In this document: piece after piece, positions 17,517-52,689 of the stretch
Layout of the letters: every line of letters starts with the position of its first letter
Position numbering within the stretch: the first letter of the stretch is position 1
Origin: a virus
Length of the DNA stretch: 64,000 bases
IMG/VR virus record: IMGVR_UViG_3300010389_000002
Strand: one strand, 5' to 3'
The notes under the pieces: model-generated
Told to the model about the DNA's origin: nothing
Database searches by the model: none
What the model saw: the letters and a program-made list of their open reading frames with translations, nothing else
Position numbers and translations under genes: made by a program

Positions 17517-17733
17517 CTTCTTGCTCCTTATTGAATCCAAATCTATCTAACTTAGTTTGTACTCGCTGTTGTTGTGCCAGCTTACAGATGTTCTCCATCA
17601 CCTTGAGCGTATCTTCAATCGATGGATTAGATTGAATACACTTCAAGCGTTGGTAAACTTCCTCATACAGAGGCAGGAAAATATCTGCTGCCTCTTGTAC
17701 TTCTTCGAGTGTCAATGGTTTACTTAGATCCAT
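17491..17733 (-). CDS. Hypothetical protein
   Basis: 80-aa ORF tightly packed in the operon. Confidence 0.6.
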   Translation of the reverse strand: MDLSKPLTLEEVQEAADIFLPLYEEVYQRLKCIQSNPSIEDTLKVMENICKLAQQQRVQTKLDRFGFNKEQEDGNLSSDK

Positions 17734-18389
17734 TCTAGTGCCTCTGCTACGGTTGGAAATTGTTCAGCAAACACTGCCTTACAGTTGTTGGCAATGTCCA
17801 TGTGCTCCTTCTGTGTGCCGTGTCCAGAGCGTAGAGAGATATAATGTATCCAACTACGGCATGAACCCGTCATGTAGATCCTTGTAGGCACCGCTGCTGG
17901 GAGAACAGCGCGGGCACACTCCTTGGCAATTCCCCTTCCTAGCATCTGAGTGTAGAGTGCTTCAGCAGAACTGAATAGAGTTTCAATCTGTCTCTCGATA
18001 ATCTCTTTCTCTTCTGGATCGATATCATCAATAGAATTTTGCCTGTTCTTATCATCTTGACGGCGAAGGTCAGGCATCTGTAGAGTTCCCAGCTGAGTGC
18101 TATCAGCATAGCGTTGCGAAAACTCTTGGAAGGTGAACGAACGATGACGCAAAATTTGAGGTGAAATCTCCCTGGTAGTATTGATCTCAAGTGTCATGTA
18201 TGCCTGCTCAAAGATAGACCAGTGCTGATGCTTAATACAATACTTGAGGAGACCAGCAGCCGTATCAAAGTTCAGCTGATTGTTTGGGTTAGATACCCTA
18301 GCAATATAAGAGATGACATCTTGGGCAGTCTTATCCACCAGTTCTCCAGCACCTTGGGTGATGGCAATCAACTTAACTTGTTCACTCAT
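17724..18389 (-). CDS. thyX: FAD-dependent thymidylate synthase
   Basis: HWSIFEQA, QILRHRSFTFQEFSQRY (ThyX motif), ECARAVLP, LRSGHGTQKEH. Confidence 0.95.
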   Translation of the reverse strand: MSEQVKLIAITQGAGELVDKTAQDVISYIARVSNPNNQLNFDTAAGLLKYCIKHQHWSIFEQAYMTLEINTTREISPQILRHRSFTFQEFSQRYADSTQLGTLQMPDLRRQDDKNRQNSIDDIDPEEKEIIERQIETLFSSAEALYTQMLGRGIAKECARAVLPAAVPTRIYMTGSCRSWIHYISLRSGHGTQKEHMDIANNCKAVFAEQFPTVAEALEWI

Positions 18390-18699
18390 TAACAAATTCC
18401 TCCACAACTTCAACTTCAACAGATTTTACATCATCGCCGGGGGTGTAGTCAACTACATCCTCTACGGTCTCTACTTCTTTTACCTTAAAATCTTTCAAGG
18501 GTTTCTTTTTGTATCCAAATCCTTGAGAAGACCGTTCTTGTTCTCGAAGCAATTTCTTTAGTTTGTTTGCTTCATACAGTTCTTTCTTGATCTTAGCGTA
18601 CTCTTCGTAGCTATACAGATAAGGTTTTGATACAGCTCTCTTCAACCACTTAATATACTTAGGCAAAGTGTTTGGAGAAGCGGGCTCTACGTAATCCAT
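18382..18699 (-). CDS. Hypothetical protein
   Basis: 105-aa ORF directly behind a sigma70-type promoter. Confidence 0.6.
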   Translation of the reverse strand: MDYVEPASPNTLPKYIKWLKRAVSKPYLYSYEEYAKIKKELYEANKLKKLLREQERSSQGFGYKKKPLKDFKVKEVETVEDVVDYTPGDDVKSVEVEVVEEFVNE

Positions 18700-18720: not shown

Positions 18721-18756
18721 ATTATAGCATAAAAAAAAGAGGGGCGTCAACCCCTC
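18721..18756 (-). promoter_or_regulatory. Terminator hairpin carrying a sigma70 promoter
   Basis: GAGGGG-TTGACG-CCCCTC-T8 then TG-n-TATAAT (18-nt spacer). Confidence 0.75.
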
Positions 18757-18914
18757 CTGTTATACATTGGTTCAACATTTAAAAGTTGATCAAAGTATTC
18801 TCGCAAGTGTATTTTATAGCAAGACCAGTATGTTACTCCCCTATATTTTAGTTGGTAACATGACGGTGGTCTGTTATCGTTATCCATATCATCAAAGTGA
18901 TATCGATAATCCAT
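18747..18914 (-). CDS. Small YRGV-motif protein (55 aa)
   Basis: MDYRYHFDD...LKYRGVTYW; starts just after the DUF4278 stop. Confidence 0.55.
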   Translation of the reverse strand: MDYRYHFDDMDNDNRPPSCYQLKYRGVTYWSCYKIHLREYFDQLLNVEPMYNRRG

Positions 18915-18915
18915 A

Positions 18916-19080
18916 TCACTTGTTATAAGTGTGACCACGATAGCAGAAAGTGCCGTGAATTTCTTCAGCACCTTGCTTACACTCATACTTGACACCACGA
19001 TAGGTAGTCATAGCAATTTGAGCATCGTGAAGGGCGTTGGCTTTTTGAATCTGCTTTTTGATGAGGGTTAGTGTGTTCAT
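18916..19080 (-). CDS. DUF4278-like small protein (54 aa)
   Basis: Hand translation MNTLTLIKKQIQKANALHDAQIAMTTYRGVKYECKQGAEEIHGTFCYRGHTYNK with two YRGxxY motifs; SD AGGAG; not in ORF track. Confidence 0.8.
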   Translation of the reverse strand: MNTLTLIKKQIQKANALHDAQIAMTTYRGVKYECKQGAEEIHGTFCYRGHTYNK

Positions 19081-19116
19081 TGTAGGTACTCCTAAAGAAA
19101 TGAGTTAATTAAAACC

Positions 19117-19382
19117 CGTTCCTTCAGTCGTGTGCGTCCTATACTTCTGGCAGGAAACATGCTGGGTCAGTATGTTCCATCCAATGAATGAGGATATCAG
19201 CTTTTTCAAAAGGAGTGAAAAGAGTTGTCTCTTCCAATCCTTGCTTCAACCATTCATAGTCTTCACAGCGAAGATAATTCTCCACTGGGACATGACTAAA
19301 AAAGATGAGTGCTAATGAAAGCATAGGATGAACGCTCCGTTCCGCGACTTACTTGCGTCCTCCTCTGGGAGGAGGATGAACG
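19117..19382 (-). ncRNA. Tandem glutamine-II (Downstream-peptide, yfr6-like) riboswitch
   Basis: Two units CGTTCA-[P2 stem]-CGCA-N11-GAACGG at 19338-19382 and 19117-19334, upstream of a DUF4278-like gene. Confidence 0.75.
19139..19324 (-). CDS. 61-aa ORF nested inside riboswitch unit 2
   Basis: ATG lies in 5' arm TCCTATGC and TAG in 3' arm GTATAGGA. Confidence 0.65.
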   Translation of the reverse strand: MLSLALIFFSHVPVENYLRCEDYEWLKQGLEETTLFTPFEKADILIHWMEHTDPACFLPEV

Positions 19383-19389
19383 TATGGTA

Positions 19390-19419
19390 ATACTACCACA
19401 ATATATTTATGCTTGTCAA
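19390..19419 (-). promoter_or_regulatory. Overlapping sigma70 and late promoters for the riboswitch transcript
   Basis: TTGACA-N18-TAGTAT plus ATAAATA at 19404-19410. Confidence 0.6.
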
Positions 19420-28404: not shown

Positions 28405-28528
28405 TGAAACAGTTAGTAGGTCCATCAGGGAAATGGTGGAGATACTATTTCCTCACCACCCTCAGGTGAGGATATGAGAGACGGATTGTTAGACCTGCCT
28501 AGTCTCGGTCAAACGGCAGGGGTTGAAC
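28405..28528 (-). ncRNA. Structured psbA leader, PhotoRC-II-like
   Basis: GACCGAGACTAGGCAGG...CGTCTCTCATATCCTCACC-TGAG-GGTGGTGAGGA with several stems; typical location of this motif. Confidence 0.5.
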
Positions 28529-28567
28529 ATGTAACAAACGTGTTAAGGTTCGTAACATTTGTTTACC

Positions 28568-31440: not shown

Positions 31441-31493
31441 TAAAACGTTACATTGTAACGTTCTGTTTATTTATACAAGTTTTACCTTGTATA

Positions 31494-31567
31494 CGGGACT
31501 GATGGGACTCGAACCCACGACTTCCTGCGTGACAGGCAGGCGCTCTAACCGTCTGAGCTACAACCCC
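31494..31567 (-). tRNA. tRNA-Asp (GTC)
   Basis: Cloverleaf; CCTGC-CT GTC AC-GCAGG; GTTCGAGTC. Confidence 0.93.
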
Positions 31568-31571
31568 AAGG

Positions 31572-31654
31572 TGTCGGCAAGAGGACTTGAACCTCCACGT
31601 CATAAAGACACTGGAACCTAAACCCAGCGCGTCTACCAATTCCGCCATGCCGAC
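31572..31654 (-). tRNA. tRNA-Leu (TAG)
   Basis: Long variable arm; CTGGG-TT TAG GT-TCCAG; GTTCAAGTC. Confidence 0.92.
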
Positions 31655-31664
31655 GTATGTGCTG

Positions 31665-31700
31665 ACTATATCAGAAGTGTTGGGGGTTTGTCAACCCCCT
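31665..31700 (-). promoter_or_regulatory. Hairpin-embedded sigma70 promoter for tRNA-Leu/Asp
   Basis: GGGGG-TTGACAAA-CCCCC; TTGACA-N18-TATAGT. Confidence 0.65.
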
Positions 31701-32266
31701 TACTTCCAAGCAGGACCAGCAAACCATCCGACCAAAGAAACTCTTTTACCGGAGGTAACCTTCTTGACTCTATGGATCATGTCCGAAGAGAAAATAATAG
31801 CATCACCACAACCTAACTTCAAACGATGCATCCCTCTGTTAGCGTCAACAAGGATTTGAAACTCACCTCCCGTGTAATCAGAAGATTGTGAGAGACATAA
31901 GCTGATACTAAGTTTCCGTATCAGGTTCATATCTGGATAGAACTTAGACTCTGCTAGATCTTCATGCCACCCATAATGGGATTCAGAATTATCATACACA
32001 GTGTATTGAACTTTATCAGACCAAGCATACAAATCATAATGAAATAGATTATTGTTTGCTTGATGAATAAAGTGTGCCATCATACCAGATACCCAGTGGT
32101 CGGTATCGATCCACCCTATCTTAGCATTCCTAACGTCGTGAGTTTCTCCATCTAGAATCTTAGCTTGTTCCAGTTGAATGTAACGTTGTTGTTCTAAGAT
32201 AACCTGTGCTACTGACGGATCAATAGCACTTGGTATATGATAAAATTTACTGCCACTAATACTCAT
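31700..32266 (-). CDS. 2OG-Fe(II) oxygenase
   Basis: QYTVY..YGWHED..RKLSISL..YTGGEF..HRVKKVTSGKRVSLVGW. Confidence 0.9.
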   Translation of the reverse strand: MSISGSKFYHIPSAIDPSVAQVILEQQRYIQLEQAKILDGETHDVRNAKIGWIDTDHWVSGMMAHFIHQANNNLFHYDLYAWSDKVQYTVYDNSESHYGWHEDLAESKFYPDMNLIRKLSISLCLSQSSDYTGGEFQILVDANRGMHRLKLGCGDAIIFSSDMIHRVKKVTSGKRVSLVGWFAGPAWK

Positions 32267-32279
32267 TACTATCCAGATA

Positions 32280-32422
32280 TCAGGCTCGCCACTTGTTCTT
32301 TAACTGGAAACAAGAAACCAGGCGGGAGTTATCCCATCCGCACCACTAGTTTTTATGGAGAAACTAGAAACCCGGAGGTCGAAGGACCATCCCGACCAGT
32401 GCTGTTAGAGTCCATCCGTGAC
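32280..32422 (-). ncRNA. wcaG-type cis-regulatory RNA
   Basis: Two repeated units, each a hairpin followed by TGGYG (TGGTG, TGGCG), in the leader of the oxygenase gene. Confidence 0.65.
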
Positions 32423-32640
32423 TATTGACCACCTTCCAGTTCGGTGAGTGATTCTACGGCAGAGTCAATGGCATCAGCAATGCTTGACCATTTACCATAC
32501 ATGATATTTTCATGCTCCCACCAATATTCACCATCCCTATTAATGATGTTATAGTATGTAGTCACGGTATCTCCATGACCCACTTCTTCAACAATTCTCA
32601 TAGGGATTACTTCCCGTGAATCATCTTCTAAGTTACTCAT
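32422..32640 (-). CDS. Hypothetical protein
   Basis: 72-aa ORF, operon packing. Confidence 0.45.
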   Translation of the reverse strand: MSNLEDDSREVIPMRIVEEVGHGDTVTTYYNIINRDGEYWWEHENIMYGKWSSIADAIDSAVESLTELEGGQ

Positions 32641-32894
32641 AGTGATAGAATATCCTCAGAAATAGAATCTTTGAATGTTACTTCACCACTAGTGATGTAG
32701 TCATCATACATTCCACTGAAGTCTAGATTGTATCGATAGTCTTGGGGAACATCTATTTGCTGGACTTCATAGTAAATATTAAACAGCTGCTTTACTAGAG
32801 CAACATGTTTGTTTTCAATTGCTTCCACCAATGCTTTGGCGGTAGCATCCTTAAGGGAATCAAGAGCAGTCATCTTTAATATAACAAGGGACAC
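32637..32894 (-). CDS. Hypothetical protein
   Basis: 85-aa ORF, operon packing. Confidence 0.5.
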   Translation of the reverse strand: MSLVILKMTALDSLKDATAKALVEAIENKHVALVKQLFNIYYEVQQIDVPQDYRYNLDFSGMYDDYITSGEVTFKDSISEDILSL

Positions 32895-33099
32895 GATCAG
32901 GATCTAACCACTTAGTATACTCGAAGTCTTCCATAGCAGTCATAAGTTGCATCTGGTTGTCTAAGAGATACATATCACGATACCTTTTGGTATAGTGATC
33001 TGCTTTTTGAATACGATAGTCTGGCATACCGTTAATTTCTAGTATACCACACTCAACGTAGCGATACGGGAATCGCTCAAGCAATACTTTCGGCGTCAT
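32860..33099 (-). CDS. Conserved cyanophage hypothetical protein
   Basis: LERFPYRYV..GILEINGMPDYRIQK..MYLLDNQMQL. Confidence 0.65.
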   Translation of the reverse strand: MTPKVLLERFPYRYVECGILEINGMPDYRIQKADHYTKRYRDMYLLDNQMQLMTAMEDFEYTKWLDPDRVPCYIKDDCS

Positions 33100-33262
33100 C
33101 GAGGATTTCATCCAAGCGGTGTTTGAGATACTCACTAATGATATCACCAACTTGCTCACTTGTCAAGTCATTCAACCAACTCCAGTTAGGATCGTTGGGA
33201 TCCCAGTCCAGTGTGATCTGTCCTGTTTCATCATTTACTTCTACTTTAAGAGAGTCTTCCAT
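33077..33262 (-). CDS. Hypothetical protein
   Basis: ITLDWDPNDPNWSWL motif. Confidence 0.55.
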   Translation of the reverse strand: MEDSLKVEVNDETGQITLDWDPNDPNWSWLNDLTSEQVGDIISEYLKHRLDEILDDAESIA

Positions 33263-33485
33263 TAGCTTGTAAATATTCGATTGTTTCTTTTGCCCCACCA
33301 ATTACTTGATCATCAATGAGAACTTTAGGAAATGTAGAACCTTCCCCAAAGATAGCATAAAAATCTTCTTTGTCAAAATCTGTATTCAAAGACAATACAG
33401 TTGGAGAAATGCCAATATGATACATTACCTCTTCTGTTTTTACACAGAAGGGACAACCAGATTTAGAATAGATTTTTACATTCAT
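33246..33485 (-). CDS. Glutaredoxin
   Basis: YSKSGCPFC, TFPKV, IGG; start set after tRNA-Pro. Confidence 0.88.
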   Translation of the reverse strand: MNVKIYSKSGCPFCVKTEEVMYHIGISPTVLSLNTDFDKEDFYAIFGEGSTFPKVLIDDQVIGGAKETIEYLQANGRLS

Positions 33486-33507
33486 TGATAGTTTGTCGGT
33501 GGGACAA

Positions 33508-33581
33508 TCGGGGCGACAGGATTCGAACCTACGACTTCTGCTTCCCAAAAGCAGCGCTCTACCAAGCTGAGCTACGCCCCG
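33508..33581 (-). tRNA. tRNA-Pro (TGG)
   Basis: CTGCT-TT TGG GA-AGCAG; GTTCGAATC. Confidence 0.93.
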
Positions 33582-33836
33582 TTATTTTATTTCAAAGTCA
33601 AGACGCTTGACTTTACGTTGCTTACGTGCTTCTTGCCATGCAACATCTTCTTTAGATAGGATAGATTTTTGTTGTTTGCCATACCCTGTAACGATCTCAA
33701 CTAGCGATAGATCGTTCGCTGTGATATTTCCACCACGGATGCTCGTAAGGTTCGGGCACTGACAGCATCTGGTTTTGGTGGGATGTTCTTCTAAGTTCTT
33801 CCCGCAACTCTTGCATCTGATTACTAACATCGTCAA
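33582..33836 (-). CDS. Small Cys-rich (zinc-ribbon-like) protein
   Basis: CKSCG...CCQCPN. Confidence 0.6.
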   Translation of the reverse strand: MTMLVIRCKSCGKNLEEHPTKTRCCQCPNLTSIRGGNITANDLSLVEIVTGYGKQQKSILSKEDVAWQEARKQRKVKRLDFEIK

Positions 33837-33891
33837 GCATTTCCTTCAATTCGTCAAGTGTTTCTTCTGGCATGTGGTATTTATAGAATAA

Positions 33892-33963
33892 TGGGCGAAG
33901 AGGGGATCGAACCCCCGACAACCTCGGTGTAAACGAGACACTCTACCGCTGAGTTATTCGCCC
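33892..33963 (-). tRNA. tRNA-Val (TAC)
   Basis: CTCG-TT TAC AC-CGAG; GTTCGATC. Confidence 0.93.
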
Positions 33964-33999
33964 TTGGTAGTATCATAAAACCGTTTAGGTATTTATGAA

Positions 34000-34072
34000 C
34001 TCCTCCACCTGGGCTCGAACCAGGGACATTCTGATTAACAGTCAGACGCTCTACCGACTGAGCTATAGAGGA
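34000..34072 (-). tRNA. tRNA-Asn (GTT)
   Basis: TCTGA-CT GTT AA-TCAGA. Confidence 0.93.
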
Positions 34073-34102
34073 ATATATTCGCTATTCGGAAATAGCGAAT
34101 AG

Positions 34103-34174
34103 AGCGAGATACCGGATTCGAACCGGTGACATCCAACTTGGAAGGATGGCGTTCTACCACTGAACTAATCTCGC
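34103..34174 (-). tRNA. tRNA-Gly (TCC)
   Basis: CCATC-CT TCC AA-GTTGG (one T-T mismatch). Confidence 0.9.
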
Positions 34175-34251
<77 letters not shown>

Positions 34252-52557: not shown

Positions 52558-52596
52558 AAAAAAATCCTCCCGTCTAATTATTTAGGGAAGGTAACA

Positions 52597-52683
52597 CGGA
52601 GGGAGGGGGAGTCGAACCCCCAAGGGCTTTAACACCTCAACTGTTTTCAAGACAGGTTCCGTCGCCAATCGGATTGCCCCTCC
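52597..52683 (-). tRNA. tRNA-Ser (TGA)
   Basis: Long variable arm; CTGT-CT TGA AA-ACAG; GTTCGACTC. Confidence 0.93.
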
Positions 52684-52689
52684 AATAAA

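Follow-up and report, generated by a model that had tools for sequence, protein, structure and literature searches.

The locus and its leader element

The stretch analysed here, a 64,000-nucleotide (nt) window from IMG/VR virus record IMGVR_UViG_3300010389_000002, comes from a T4-like cyanomyovirus, with its best DNA matches among Synechococcus and Prochlorococcus phages. On its minus strand, to which all features of the unit described below belong, an RNA element with two glutamine-aptamer cores (19382-19116) lies between a promoter upstream and a DUF4278 (IF17-like) gene downstream. The promoter is of the sigma-70 type (TTGACA-18 nt-TAGTAT, 19390-19419), agrees with the consensus at 10 of 12 positions, has a TG ahead of its -10 box, and places the predicted transcription start at ~19383, 1-2 bases ahead of the first CGUUCA of the element. 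The upstream neighbour of the element is speD (19755-19423; PF02675). On the other side, a Shine-Dalgarno (SD) sequence, AGGAG (19089-19093), precedes the DUF4278 gene (18916-19080), which encodes a 54-amino-acid protein with a strong phrog_545 match, visible YRG repeats, and a score of 22.0 bits (E = 2.2e-4) against PF14105, whose gathering cut-off is 25.3 bits. Nested within the element is a further open reading frame (ORF; 19139-19324) of 61 amino acids that falls in phrog_13397 and is related to phrog_504. The region is probably a self-contained cyanophage transcription unit whose leader comprises a double glutamine sensor and one expression platform.

The original prediction, made from the letters alone, described this leader as a tandem glutamine-II riboswitch whose second aptamer encloses a whole ORF and pairs its start and stop codons. 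All of its motif strings are present on the minus strand where it had placed them, with the true 3' end at 19116 rather than 19117. Unit 1 consists of CGUUCA(1) (19377-19382), the hairpin P2 (UCCUCCU-CCCAG-AGGAGGA, 19358-19376; seen in the minimum free energy (MFE) fold and in the stem versions of homologs), CGCA (19357-19354), AGUAAGUCGCG (19353-19343) and GAACGG (19342-19337). Unit 2 begins with CGUUCA (19334-19329) and UCCUAUGC (19328-19321), which holds the AUG of the ORF (19324-19322), and resumes after the ORF body with GUAUAGGA (19144-19137), which holds the UAG (19141-19139), followed by CGCA (19136-19133), CACGACUGAAG (19132-19122) and a second GAACG plus G (19116-19121). The 8-bp stem formed by UCCUAUGC and GUAUAGGA, here called P2', is Watson-Crick at seven positions and G.U at one, sets A19324 of the AUG opposite U19141 of the UAG, and is lengthened to 11 pairs (19328-19318 with 19147-19137) in the MFE fold of the whole leader. 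The hairpin of the second core does enclose a genuine ORF, with both its start and its stop codon in the paired arms and a frame open for 61 codons, and the element upstream of the DUF4278 gene is indeed a relative of the glutamine riboswitches. In the Rfam search that had been proposed as a check, unit 1 scored below threshold (Glutamine-II, 27.1 versus 33 bits; Glutamine, 24.8 versus 35 bits) and unit 2 was unmatched. The short motif CGTTCA..CGCA alone is within chance, occurring twice in the window versus 0.8 times expected.

A tblastn-based scan with the ORF protein yielded 175 relatives in IMG/VR and a 14-nt core pattern a further 120 loci; removal of duplicates left 171 unique elements, with 142 complete unique elements used for haplotypes. 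By BLAST, 413 of 50,697 phage records contained a match, and the element was examined directly in seven Kyanoviridae genera. Since the whole arrangement recurs in these 413 records and 171 unique elements and shows covariation in every helix, it is beyond chance: the feature is real, widespread and functional-looking. The ORF lies in P2' in 155 of the 171 unique elements. Relatives carry an ORF in the first hairpin, in the second, in both or in neither, so the P2 and P2' loops range from 4 nt to more than 200 nt, and eight unique relatives are compact and ORF-free, with short hairpins in place of the ORF. A scan of genome contigs with GGAACGGN{1,5}CGTTCAT gave, among the matches listed, chance ones in unrelated bacteria and none that was usable.

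A probable strand swap between two glutamine-aptamer cores

The two units contain identical CGUUC copies and identical GAACG copies, so both of two pairings are possible in most sequences: in series, with each unit closing its own CGUUC/GAACG helix, or nested, with CGUUC(1) pairing GAACG(2) as an outer helix P1 and GAACG(1) pairing CGUUC(2) as an inner helix P1'. The variants among the relatives discriminate between them. Four variable positions, taken in the order 5'(1), 3'(1), 5'(2), 3'(2), define four haplotypes in the 142 complete elements, namely C,G,C,G (122 elements), C,C,G,G (11, in 10 sequence backgrounds), U,C,G,A (8, in 4 backgrounds) and U,G,C,A (1). Nested pairing keeps every one of these haplotypes Watson-Crick, whereas the in-series pairing is mismatched in 20 of the 142. 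The change of GAACG(1) to CAACG always accompanies that of CGUUC(2) to CGUUG (17 of 171 elements, in at least 10 backgrounds, with no single changes), and the P1' loops AG, ATT, TTC and AAC are all seen among these double-change elements. Likewise, GAACG(2) becomes AAACG only where CGUUC(1), some 250-300 nt upstream and not in the adjacent unit, becomes CGUUU, as in 10 of 10 complete elements from a search for 3' variants; this C-G to U-A double change of outer P1 is found in nine unique elements, and the pair is never broken. The single U,G,C,A element makes the P1 and P1' covariations mutually independent. Since the variants pair CGUUC(1) with GAACG(2) and GAACG(1) with CGUUC(2), the cores are interlocked rather than in series.

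Support comes also from the remaining helices. The complementarity between the linkers, AGUCG (19345-19349) and CGACU (19126-19130), is real, as had been predicted, but rather than an inter-aptamer contact it is helix P3 of a glnA-type junction. P3 shows an AUUCG/CGAAU double change in P-RSM4-type phages (four unique cases), and its remaining variants (GGUCG, CGGCU and CGAUU) are single and wobble-compatible; a scan for CGCAAGTAATTCGC, whose matches were mostly due to chance, added three further true elements, all with CGAAT. Outer P2 occurs in 45 different stem versions among homologs, the first four pairs of which are always paired, with the qualification that selection of the homologs partly required pairing. 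Six compact homologs score 38.4-43.6 bits against RF01739, the glutamine-I (glnA RNA) model (cut-off 35), and do so in the nested register, with the outermost strands aligned as P1, AGU...ACU as P3, and the second unit as a 38-48 nt insertion in P3; unit 2 of one compact homolog also reaches 34.0 bits against the glutamine-II model, RF01704 (cut-off 33). Because compact relatives pass RF01739 in this register, the element is read as a three-way junction of the glnA type whose P3 houses a second, permuted core. The window itself scores 24.8 bits against RF01739, in the in-series register only, as the model cannot bridge its ~215-nt P3 insert; more generally, standard models miss the element because genes sit inside its helices. 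De novo prediction with RNAalifold returned the nested architecture, and nearest-neighbour energies were -88.1 kcal/mol for the nested fold, -84.7 for the in-series fold and -97.7 for the free MFE fold.

The secondary structure would thus be fully nested. In the outer junction, which is predicted to be of the glnA type (glutamine-I), CGUUCA(1) would supply the 5' strand of P1 (CGUUC, partner GAACG 19121-19117) and a junction A, followed by the P2 hairpin, junction J2/3 CGCAAGUA (19350-19357), P3, and junction J3/1 GAAG (19122-19125). J2/3, which aligns to CGGAAGUA of RF01739, comprises the CGCA ligand-pocket nucleotides, with the roles of G18 and C19 assigned from PMC6698751, and the AGUA half of a loop-E-like motif; it departs once from the glutamine-I consensus, with CGC in place of CGG. 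J3/1 holds the GAA half of that motif, and its first two bases complete the UGA or UAA stop of the nested ORF in most relatives. The inner junction, predicted to be a circular permutation that lacks the loop-E motif, would run from the P1' hairpin GAACG(1)-GAG-CGUUC(2) (19330-19342), its closed P1, through a junction A and P2' around the ORF (5' arm UCCUAUGCUUU, 19318-19328, with the AUG; 3' arm in the AGAAGUAUAGGA region, 19137-19147, with the UAG), and by way of J2/3' CGCACA (19131-19136) back into P3. J2/3' provides the second set of CGCA pocket nucleotides, and CGCA[A/C]A is invariant in homologs. The P1' loop tolerates insertion, as one relative carries ~65 nt between GGAACGG(1) and CGUUCA(2).

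CGUUCA, CGCA and GGAACGG are present by sequence in each junction, and each pocket would combine one unit's 5' half with the other unit's 3' half. In the crystal structures, C1:G40, G2:C39 with G18, and C19:G41 contact glutamine or close the pocket (PMC6698751). By sequence, both predicted pockets hold every glutamine-contacting nucleotide of the solved structures (C1, G2, G18, C19, C39, G40 and G41), and the element probably binds glutamine, at two sites.

Several observations weigh against an interlocked two-site sensor. In this window, every Rfam glutamine model stays below threshold. The covariation of P1 and P1' concerns one base-pair position per helix, the two inner covarying sites are only ~10 nt apart and could spread jointly by recombination, and the Fisher p-values ignore relatedness. 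Both folds are possible in 86% of sequences. The nested fold lies ~10 kcal/mol above the free MFE fold, which combines the in-series P1 of unit 1 with a helix that buries the SD of the DUF4278 gene (the anti-SD helix, described below), a gap that tertiary contacts and ligand would have to cover. Ligand binding by the inner junction is less certain than by the outer one, because the AGUA/GAA loop-E-like motif is missing there. As for novelty, full-text searches turned up nothing that combines a nested glutamine aptamer with cyanophage; Ames and Breaker (2011) lay outside that scope and may describe nesting.

The energies and the ambiguity of most sequences could be accommodated if the two folds were alternative states of one switch, with CGUUC(1)/GAACG(1) and the anti-SD helix formed in the ligand-free RNA and glutamine driving strand exchange to the nested fold. 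The free MFE fold is exactly this ligand-free combination, and most sequences allow both registers; the swapped variants, however, would cost the in-series helix one terminal pair only, so that the covariation neither demands nor excludes such an exchange. We consider the full two-state scheme rather unlikely, and regard the in-series pairing of unit 1 as something that may be a real ligand-free state. Less probable still is a pair of independent glutamine-II (Downstream-peptide) aptamers in series, each closing its own helix and jointly pseudo-cooperative, as tandem glutamine riboswitches have been described (in-series or pseudo-cooperative; PMC2864571, PMC9481103): identical repeat strings would let both units self-fold in 122 of 142 sequences, the free MFE fold pairs CGUUC(1) with GAACG(1), Rfam aligns unit 1 this way (below threshold), and 157 glutamine doublets have been listed as pseudo-cooperative tandems (PMC9481103), but the 20 elements with one or both P1 helices mismatched and the 10 AAACG elements keep Watson-Crick pairing when crossed, scores above the RF01739 threshold occur in the nested register alone, GGAACGG lacks the enclosing 3' hairpin demanded by the glutamine-II model, and there is only one SD and one anti-SD platform. 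What stands of the predicted tandem glutamine-II riboswitch is the presence of two glutamine-riboswitch cores; their independence as in-series glutamine-II units does not, since compensatory changes cross-pair the units.

The interlocked arrangement can be set against known glutamine riboswitches. With glutamine-I (RF01739; its structure, by Ren et al. 2015, is described in PMC6698751) it shares P1 CGUUC/GAACG, the P2 hairpin, J2/3 CG(G/C)AAGUA, P3, J3/1 GAAG and the position upstream of a DUF4278/IF17-like gene, but where glutamine-I has a short loop in P3 the phage element has an entire second core, here within a ~215-nt insert that includes a gene. The resemblance to glutamine-II (RF01704) lies in the conserved CGUUCA-hairpin-CGCA and GGAACGG and in an inner core without the loop-E motif. 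Unlike glutamine-II, however, the phage element needs no H-type pseudoknot (an enclosing 3' hairpin is missing from unit 2, and the sole candidate in unit 1 is 3 bp long), and a single helix, P3, serves both units in place of one P2 apiece. Tandem riboswitches of the kind catalogued in PMC9481103 consist of self-folding aptamers with their own platforms, whereas here the strand partners are crossed and a single anti-SD/SD platform follows. The tandem glycine riboswitch is comparable in having two homologous, interdependent amino-acid-binding cores and one expression platform; its aptamers, however, lie side by side, dock through tertiary contacts and embed no gene, whereas the phage cores exchange strands and sit one inside the other.

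The closest structural parallel is a crystal: glutamine-II RNA was crystallised as a strand-swapped dimer (PDB 6QN3), and a two-piece aptamer assembles on glutamine (PMC6698751). In a review, the swapped dimer is regarded as presumably not occurring in vivo (PMC7357161). As in that dimer, the CGUUC of one unit pairs with the GAACG of the other in the phage element, where covariation supports the crossing, but the phage swap takes place within one RNA chain and is evolutionarily conserved. This amounts to evolutionary evidence that the pairing seen in the crystal is used in nature, and evolution appears to have fixed it within a single chain. By extension, at least some of the glutamine riboswitches described as 'tandem' may each be one interlocked sensor with two sites and a single expression platform. 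Phages are generally believed to contain few riboswitches, and one survey listed only two glutamine aptamers in cyanophage genomes (PMC5473149), as against the 413 phage records and at least seven Kyanoviridae genera found here.

Among 121 Cyanobiaceae genomes sampled as potential hosts, RF01739 matched in 46. The nested signature was found in none of the 31 host Cyanobiaceae loci fetched, and the 16 that were examined are ordinary single aptamers of the glnA type. In all 16, P1 is CGUUG/CAACG, with the G-C pair oriented as it is in the 'swapped' inner helix of certain phage elements, and their differences in length arise from ordinary P2 or P3 hairpins.

The embedded gene and its enclosing stem

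The nested ORF has the substitution pattern of a coding sequence. Its variable sites at codon positions 1, 2 and 3 number 24, 16 and 42, and codon differences in its frame comprise 11,396 synonymous and 8,717 nonsynonymous, compared with ~2,300 and ~18,000 in the other frames. Its 138 unique proteins form one BLAST-connected family of 53-66 amino acids in which indels are whole codons, the N-terminus is hydrophobic and two Cys residues are near-invariant. AlphaFold2 gave a confident two-helix hairpin that places both Cys residues near each other (mean predicted local distance difference test score 85). The protein belongs to no Pfam family and only to PHROGs of the function-unknown class (phrog_13397 and phrog_504), and it matched no PDB fold at E <= 0.001 and only unnamed Atlas clusters. 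Taken together, the coding signals argue that the nested ORF is a real gene.

The same nucleotides are constrained as a stem. The AUG occupies P2' arm positions 5-7 in 151 of the 155 ORF-carrying homologs, and arm pair 4 covaries (C-G 81, U-A 74, G-C 2, U.G 4, mismatch 1), so that the complementarity of the arms, which was expected to persist while the ORF varied, is indeed kept. The true partner arms pair with -10.3 kcal/mol, versus -7.4 +/- 0.18 for shuffled arms, and none of 200 shuffles was as good. Three C-terminal layouts of the protein (59, 61 and 64 amino acids) all retain pairing to the P2' 5' arm. The pairing of start with stop that characterises this window is a minority arrangement, as UAG lies in the 3' arm in 17 of 155 relatives; in 137 of 155 the ORF reads through the core (...GAC GCA AAC GAC) and ends at the U[G/A]A of CGAC-UGA-AGG. 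The stop is located within the 3' arm or at CGAC-U[GA]A-AG in 154 of 155. Compared with the read-through relatives, the window type differs by a CAG to UAG change that both makes the stop and converts an A.C mismatch of the stem to A-U. We also considered whether the cores are conserved only because they encode the D-A-N-D tail, and rejected this: conservation is just as high in the non-coding copies (unit 1 and the compact elements), and relatives can do without the tail.

In 17 relatives an ORF is also present in the first hairpin, P2 (phrog_6471), with its AUG at the same arm position and its stop inside the 3' arm. The stops UGA, UAA and UAG of these ORFs are matched by changes upstream of the AUG (UCUCAUG/CAUGAGA, UCUUAUG/CAUAAGA and UCCUAUG/CAUAGGA). 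The P2 and P2' ORF families are paralogous (hhalign probability 90%, E = 1.4e-6, both Cys residues aligned), and since they are paralogs, the aptamer-plus-gene unit may have been duplicated whole. Two strand-swapped cores that share P3, a single expression platform, and protein genes built into aptamer stems constitute a new architecture within the glutamine riboswitch kind.

ORFs within structured RNA are familiar from group I and group II introns, where they occupy peripheral loops and a long-range stem closes around the gene. Unlike intron ORFs, those of the phage element contribute their start and stop codons to a conserved stem and a ligand-sensing core, and the RNA is a riboswitch leader rather than a ribozyme. 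It is unusual for coding and sensing to overlap in this way, with the start and stop codons of a conserved gene forming part of an aptamer, and the arrangement makes the interplay of translation and ligand-dependent folding directly testable.

Likely expression platform, possible translational coupling, and transcription

Downstream of the cores, the likely expression platform is a hairpin (19092-19127) whose stem joins CUGAAGGAA (19127-19119) to UUUCUUUAG (19100-19092) and encloses an inner hairpin (19117-19102). It has a folding energy of -16.3 kcal/mol (z = -4.8), is present in the isolated 3' segment as well as in the full-length MFE fold, and buries A19093, G19092 and G19089 of the AGGAG. 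The anti-SD helix covaries, CU[G/A]AAG with CUU[C/U]AG (Fisher p = 1.6e-13, uncorrected for relatedness): an A at the start of J3/1 stands opposite C in 0 of 38 cases, with one other case unscorable, and a G there stands opposite C in 75 of 119 and opposite U in 44. Compact ORF-free relatives fold the same helix. Because the helix takes up nucleotides from the end of P3, from J3/1 and from outer P1, it and the folded sensor are mutually exclusive. Glutamine-I and glutamine-II riboswitches are ON switches for IF17/DUF4278 genes (PMC6212724), and in the mechanism proposed by Huang et al. a ribosome-binding site that is otherwise occluded becomes accessible when ligand binds (PMC6698751). Given these reports and the covarying anti-SD helix, the likeliest function of the element is a glutamine ON switch for the DUF4278 gene. 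Without ligand, CUGAAGGAA would pair with UUUCUUUAG and hide the SD; with glutamine, P1, P3 and the loop-E-like region would take up that strand, freeing the SD for translation of DUF4278. We infer the ON polarity from these features.

Two further forms of the region were observed among the relatives. In two of them, the final GGAACGG and the DUF4278 gene are lost and are followed instead by ..GAAGGAACAACUGAAGGAAACAC, a terminator-like hairpin and another CGUUCAUCCCAUC, so that they look like a rearranged or truncated element beside a different gene. Six others carry an extra conserved insert of ~40 nt (..AAACGGAUCC-stem-loop-..GAAGGUUAA..) between the aptamer and the anti-SD strand; situated between GGAACGG(2) and the SD, it may be an added structured module of the expression platform.

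The nested gene and the sensor share their RNA. Since the AUG lies at the base of P2' and the stop in its 3' arm or in P3/J3/1, a ribosome on the ORF must unfold the sensor and the folded sensor must bury the AUG. No SD is conserved before the nested AUG, because the P1' loop that would carry one varies; with the AUG also beside the inner pocket, the folded sensor should block initiation on the ORF. A translating ribosome would open P2' in every case and also P3 and J3/1 in the majority of relatives, and outer P1 could close only after the inner domain has folded. The ORF would then be translated co-transcriptionally or at low glutamine, and DUF4278 after the RNA has folded on glutamine; where the majority layout applies, a ribosome that terminates at CUGAAG could in addition disrupt the anti-SD helix. 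Most probably, the embedded protein and DUF4278 would be expressed reciprocally or one after the other. The logic of ligand plus ribosome put forward in the original prediction, in which folding sequesters the start codon, translation melts the aptamer and the downstream gene is gated, is plausible, and we hold regulatory coupling between ORF translation and the sensor to be a tentative proposition, with a chance somewhat below even.

Leader-peptide and upstream-ORF attenuators provide a precedent, in that translation of a short upstream ORF remodels the mRNA structure and sets downstream expression. Unlike these, the phage ORF encodes a conserved, folded family of 53-66 amino acids rather than a sensor peptide, and the structure that it would remodel is a metabolite-binding aptamer.

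The gene might instead be a passenger that settled in insertion-tolerant P2 loops and shares a strong promoter, leaving the riboswitch to control DUF4278 only. The wide range of loop lengths and the existence of elements with the ORF in neither hairpin, either or both agree with this, as do the ORF-free variants in the same metatranscriptomes (see below) and the core-encoded C-terminal D-A-N-D, which is absent in 17 of 155 relatives and hence dispensable. We think it unlikely, however, since the precise overlap is conserved in at least seven Kyanoviridae genera (AUG position in 151 of 155, stop site in 154 of 155), the stop codons of the paralogous P2 ORFs vary with matching changes upstream of the AUG, no conserved SD precedes the AUG, which lies in the stem, and mutual exclusion of ribosome and fold is unavoidable. 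Less likely again is activation by the ribosome itself, in which termination of the ORF at CUGAAG melts the anti-SD helix and turns DUF4278 on at any glutamine level while the aptamer mainly sets the availability of the AUG: in 137 of 155 relatives the stop is the U[G/A]A of CGAC-UGA-AGG, which supplies the 5' strand of the anti-SD helix, and the G/A polymorphism preserves both stop codon and pairing, but the ORF in the window ends at the UAG of the P2' arm, 15 nt sooner, and the compact elements, which keep the anti-SD helix, indicate that the platform works without an ORF.

The double glutamine sensor with one expression platform remains our preferred reading, and its most far-reaching form would have cyanomyoviruses use a strand-swapped, two-site glutamine sensor built partly from the start and stop codons of embedded genes, such that ribosomes and glutamine compete for one RNA; we offer this as possible, at rather less than an even chance. 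If true, the embedded Cys-pair proteins and an IF17-like glutamine-synthetase regulator would be made from one highly expressed transcript, either reciprocally or in a set order over time.

The transcription unit continues beyond the DUF4278 gene with a second small gene (18747-18914; 55 amino acids, weak DUF4278 match) and is closed by a predicted intrinsic terminator (18729-18758). Metatranscriptome contigs from four studies of marine, estuarine or salt-marsh samples cover 18723-19385, starting at ~19378-19385 and stopping at ~18723-18760. In the four assemblies, word depth reaches up to tens of thousands on 18723-19385 and is near zero on speD and past the terminator. Several contigs jump from 19136/19140 to 19322/19336, revealing co-occurring ORF-free variants. 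The coverage is consistent with a discrete, abundant transcript, without proving one; against this use of the data, the contigs are uninformative on strand, ends and level, and the unusual conservation of 18723-19385 inflates mapping. The unit is perhaps among the most abundant cyanophage transcripts, or its depth is inflated by that conservation. The locus links phage control of host nitrogen status, through an IF17-like glutamine-synthetase factor, to a transcript seen at high word depth in the four assemblies.

Elsewhere in the window, on the minus strand, two known cyanophage cis-regulatory motifs exceed their Rfam thresholds, wcaG RNA (32278-32375, 99.4 bits) and PhotoRC-II RNA (28437-28534, 60.4 bits). 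Seven phage tRNA genes (Asp, Leu, Pro, Val, Asn, Gly and Arg) are clustered at 31493-34251 and 52596-52684, also on the minus strand. An Rfam tRNA-Sec match at 52598-52683 (49 bits versus 47) was rejected, as ARAGORN identified an ordinary long-arm tRNA-Ser(UGA). An ORF at 17724-18419 (minus strand) contains RHRSFTFQEFSQRY, a putative ThyX-like motif.

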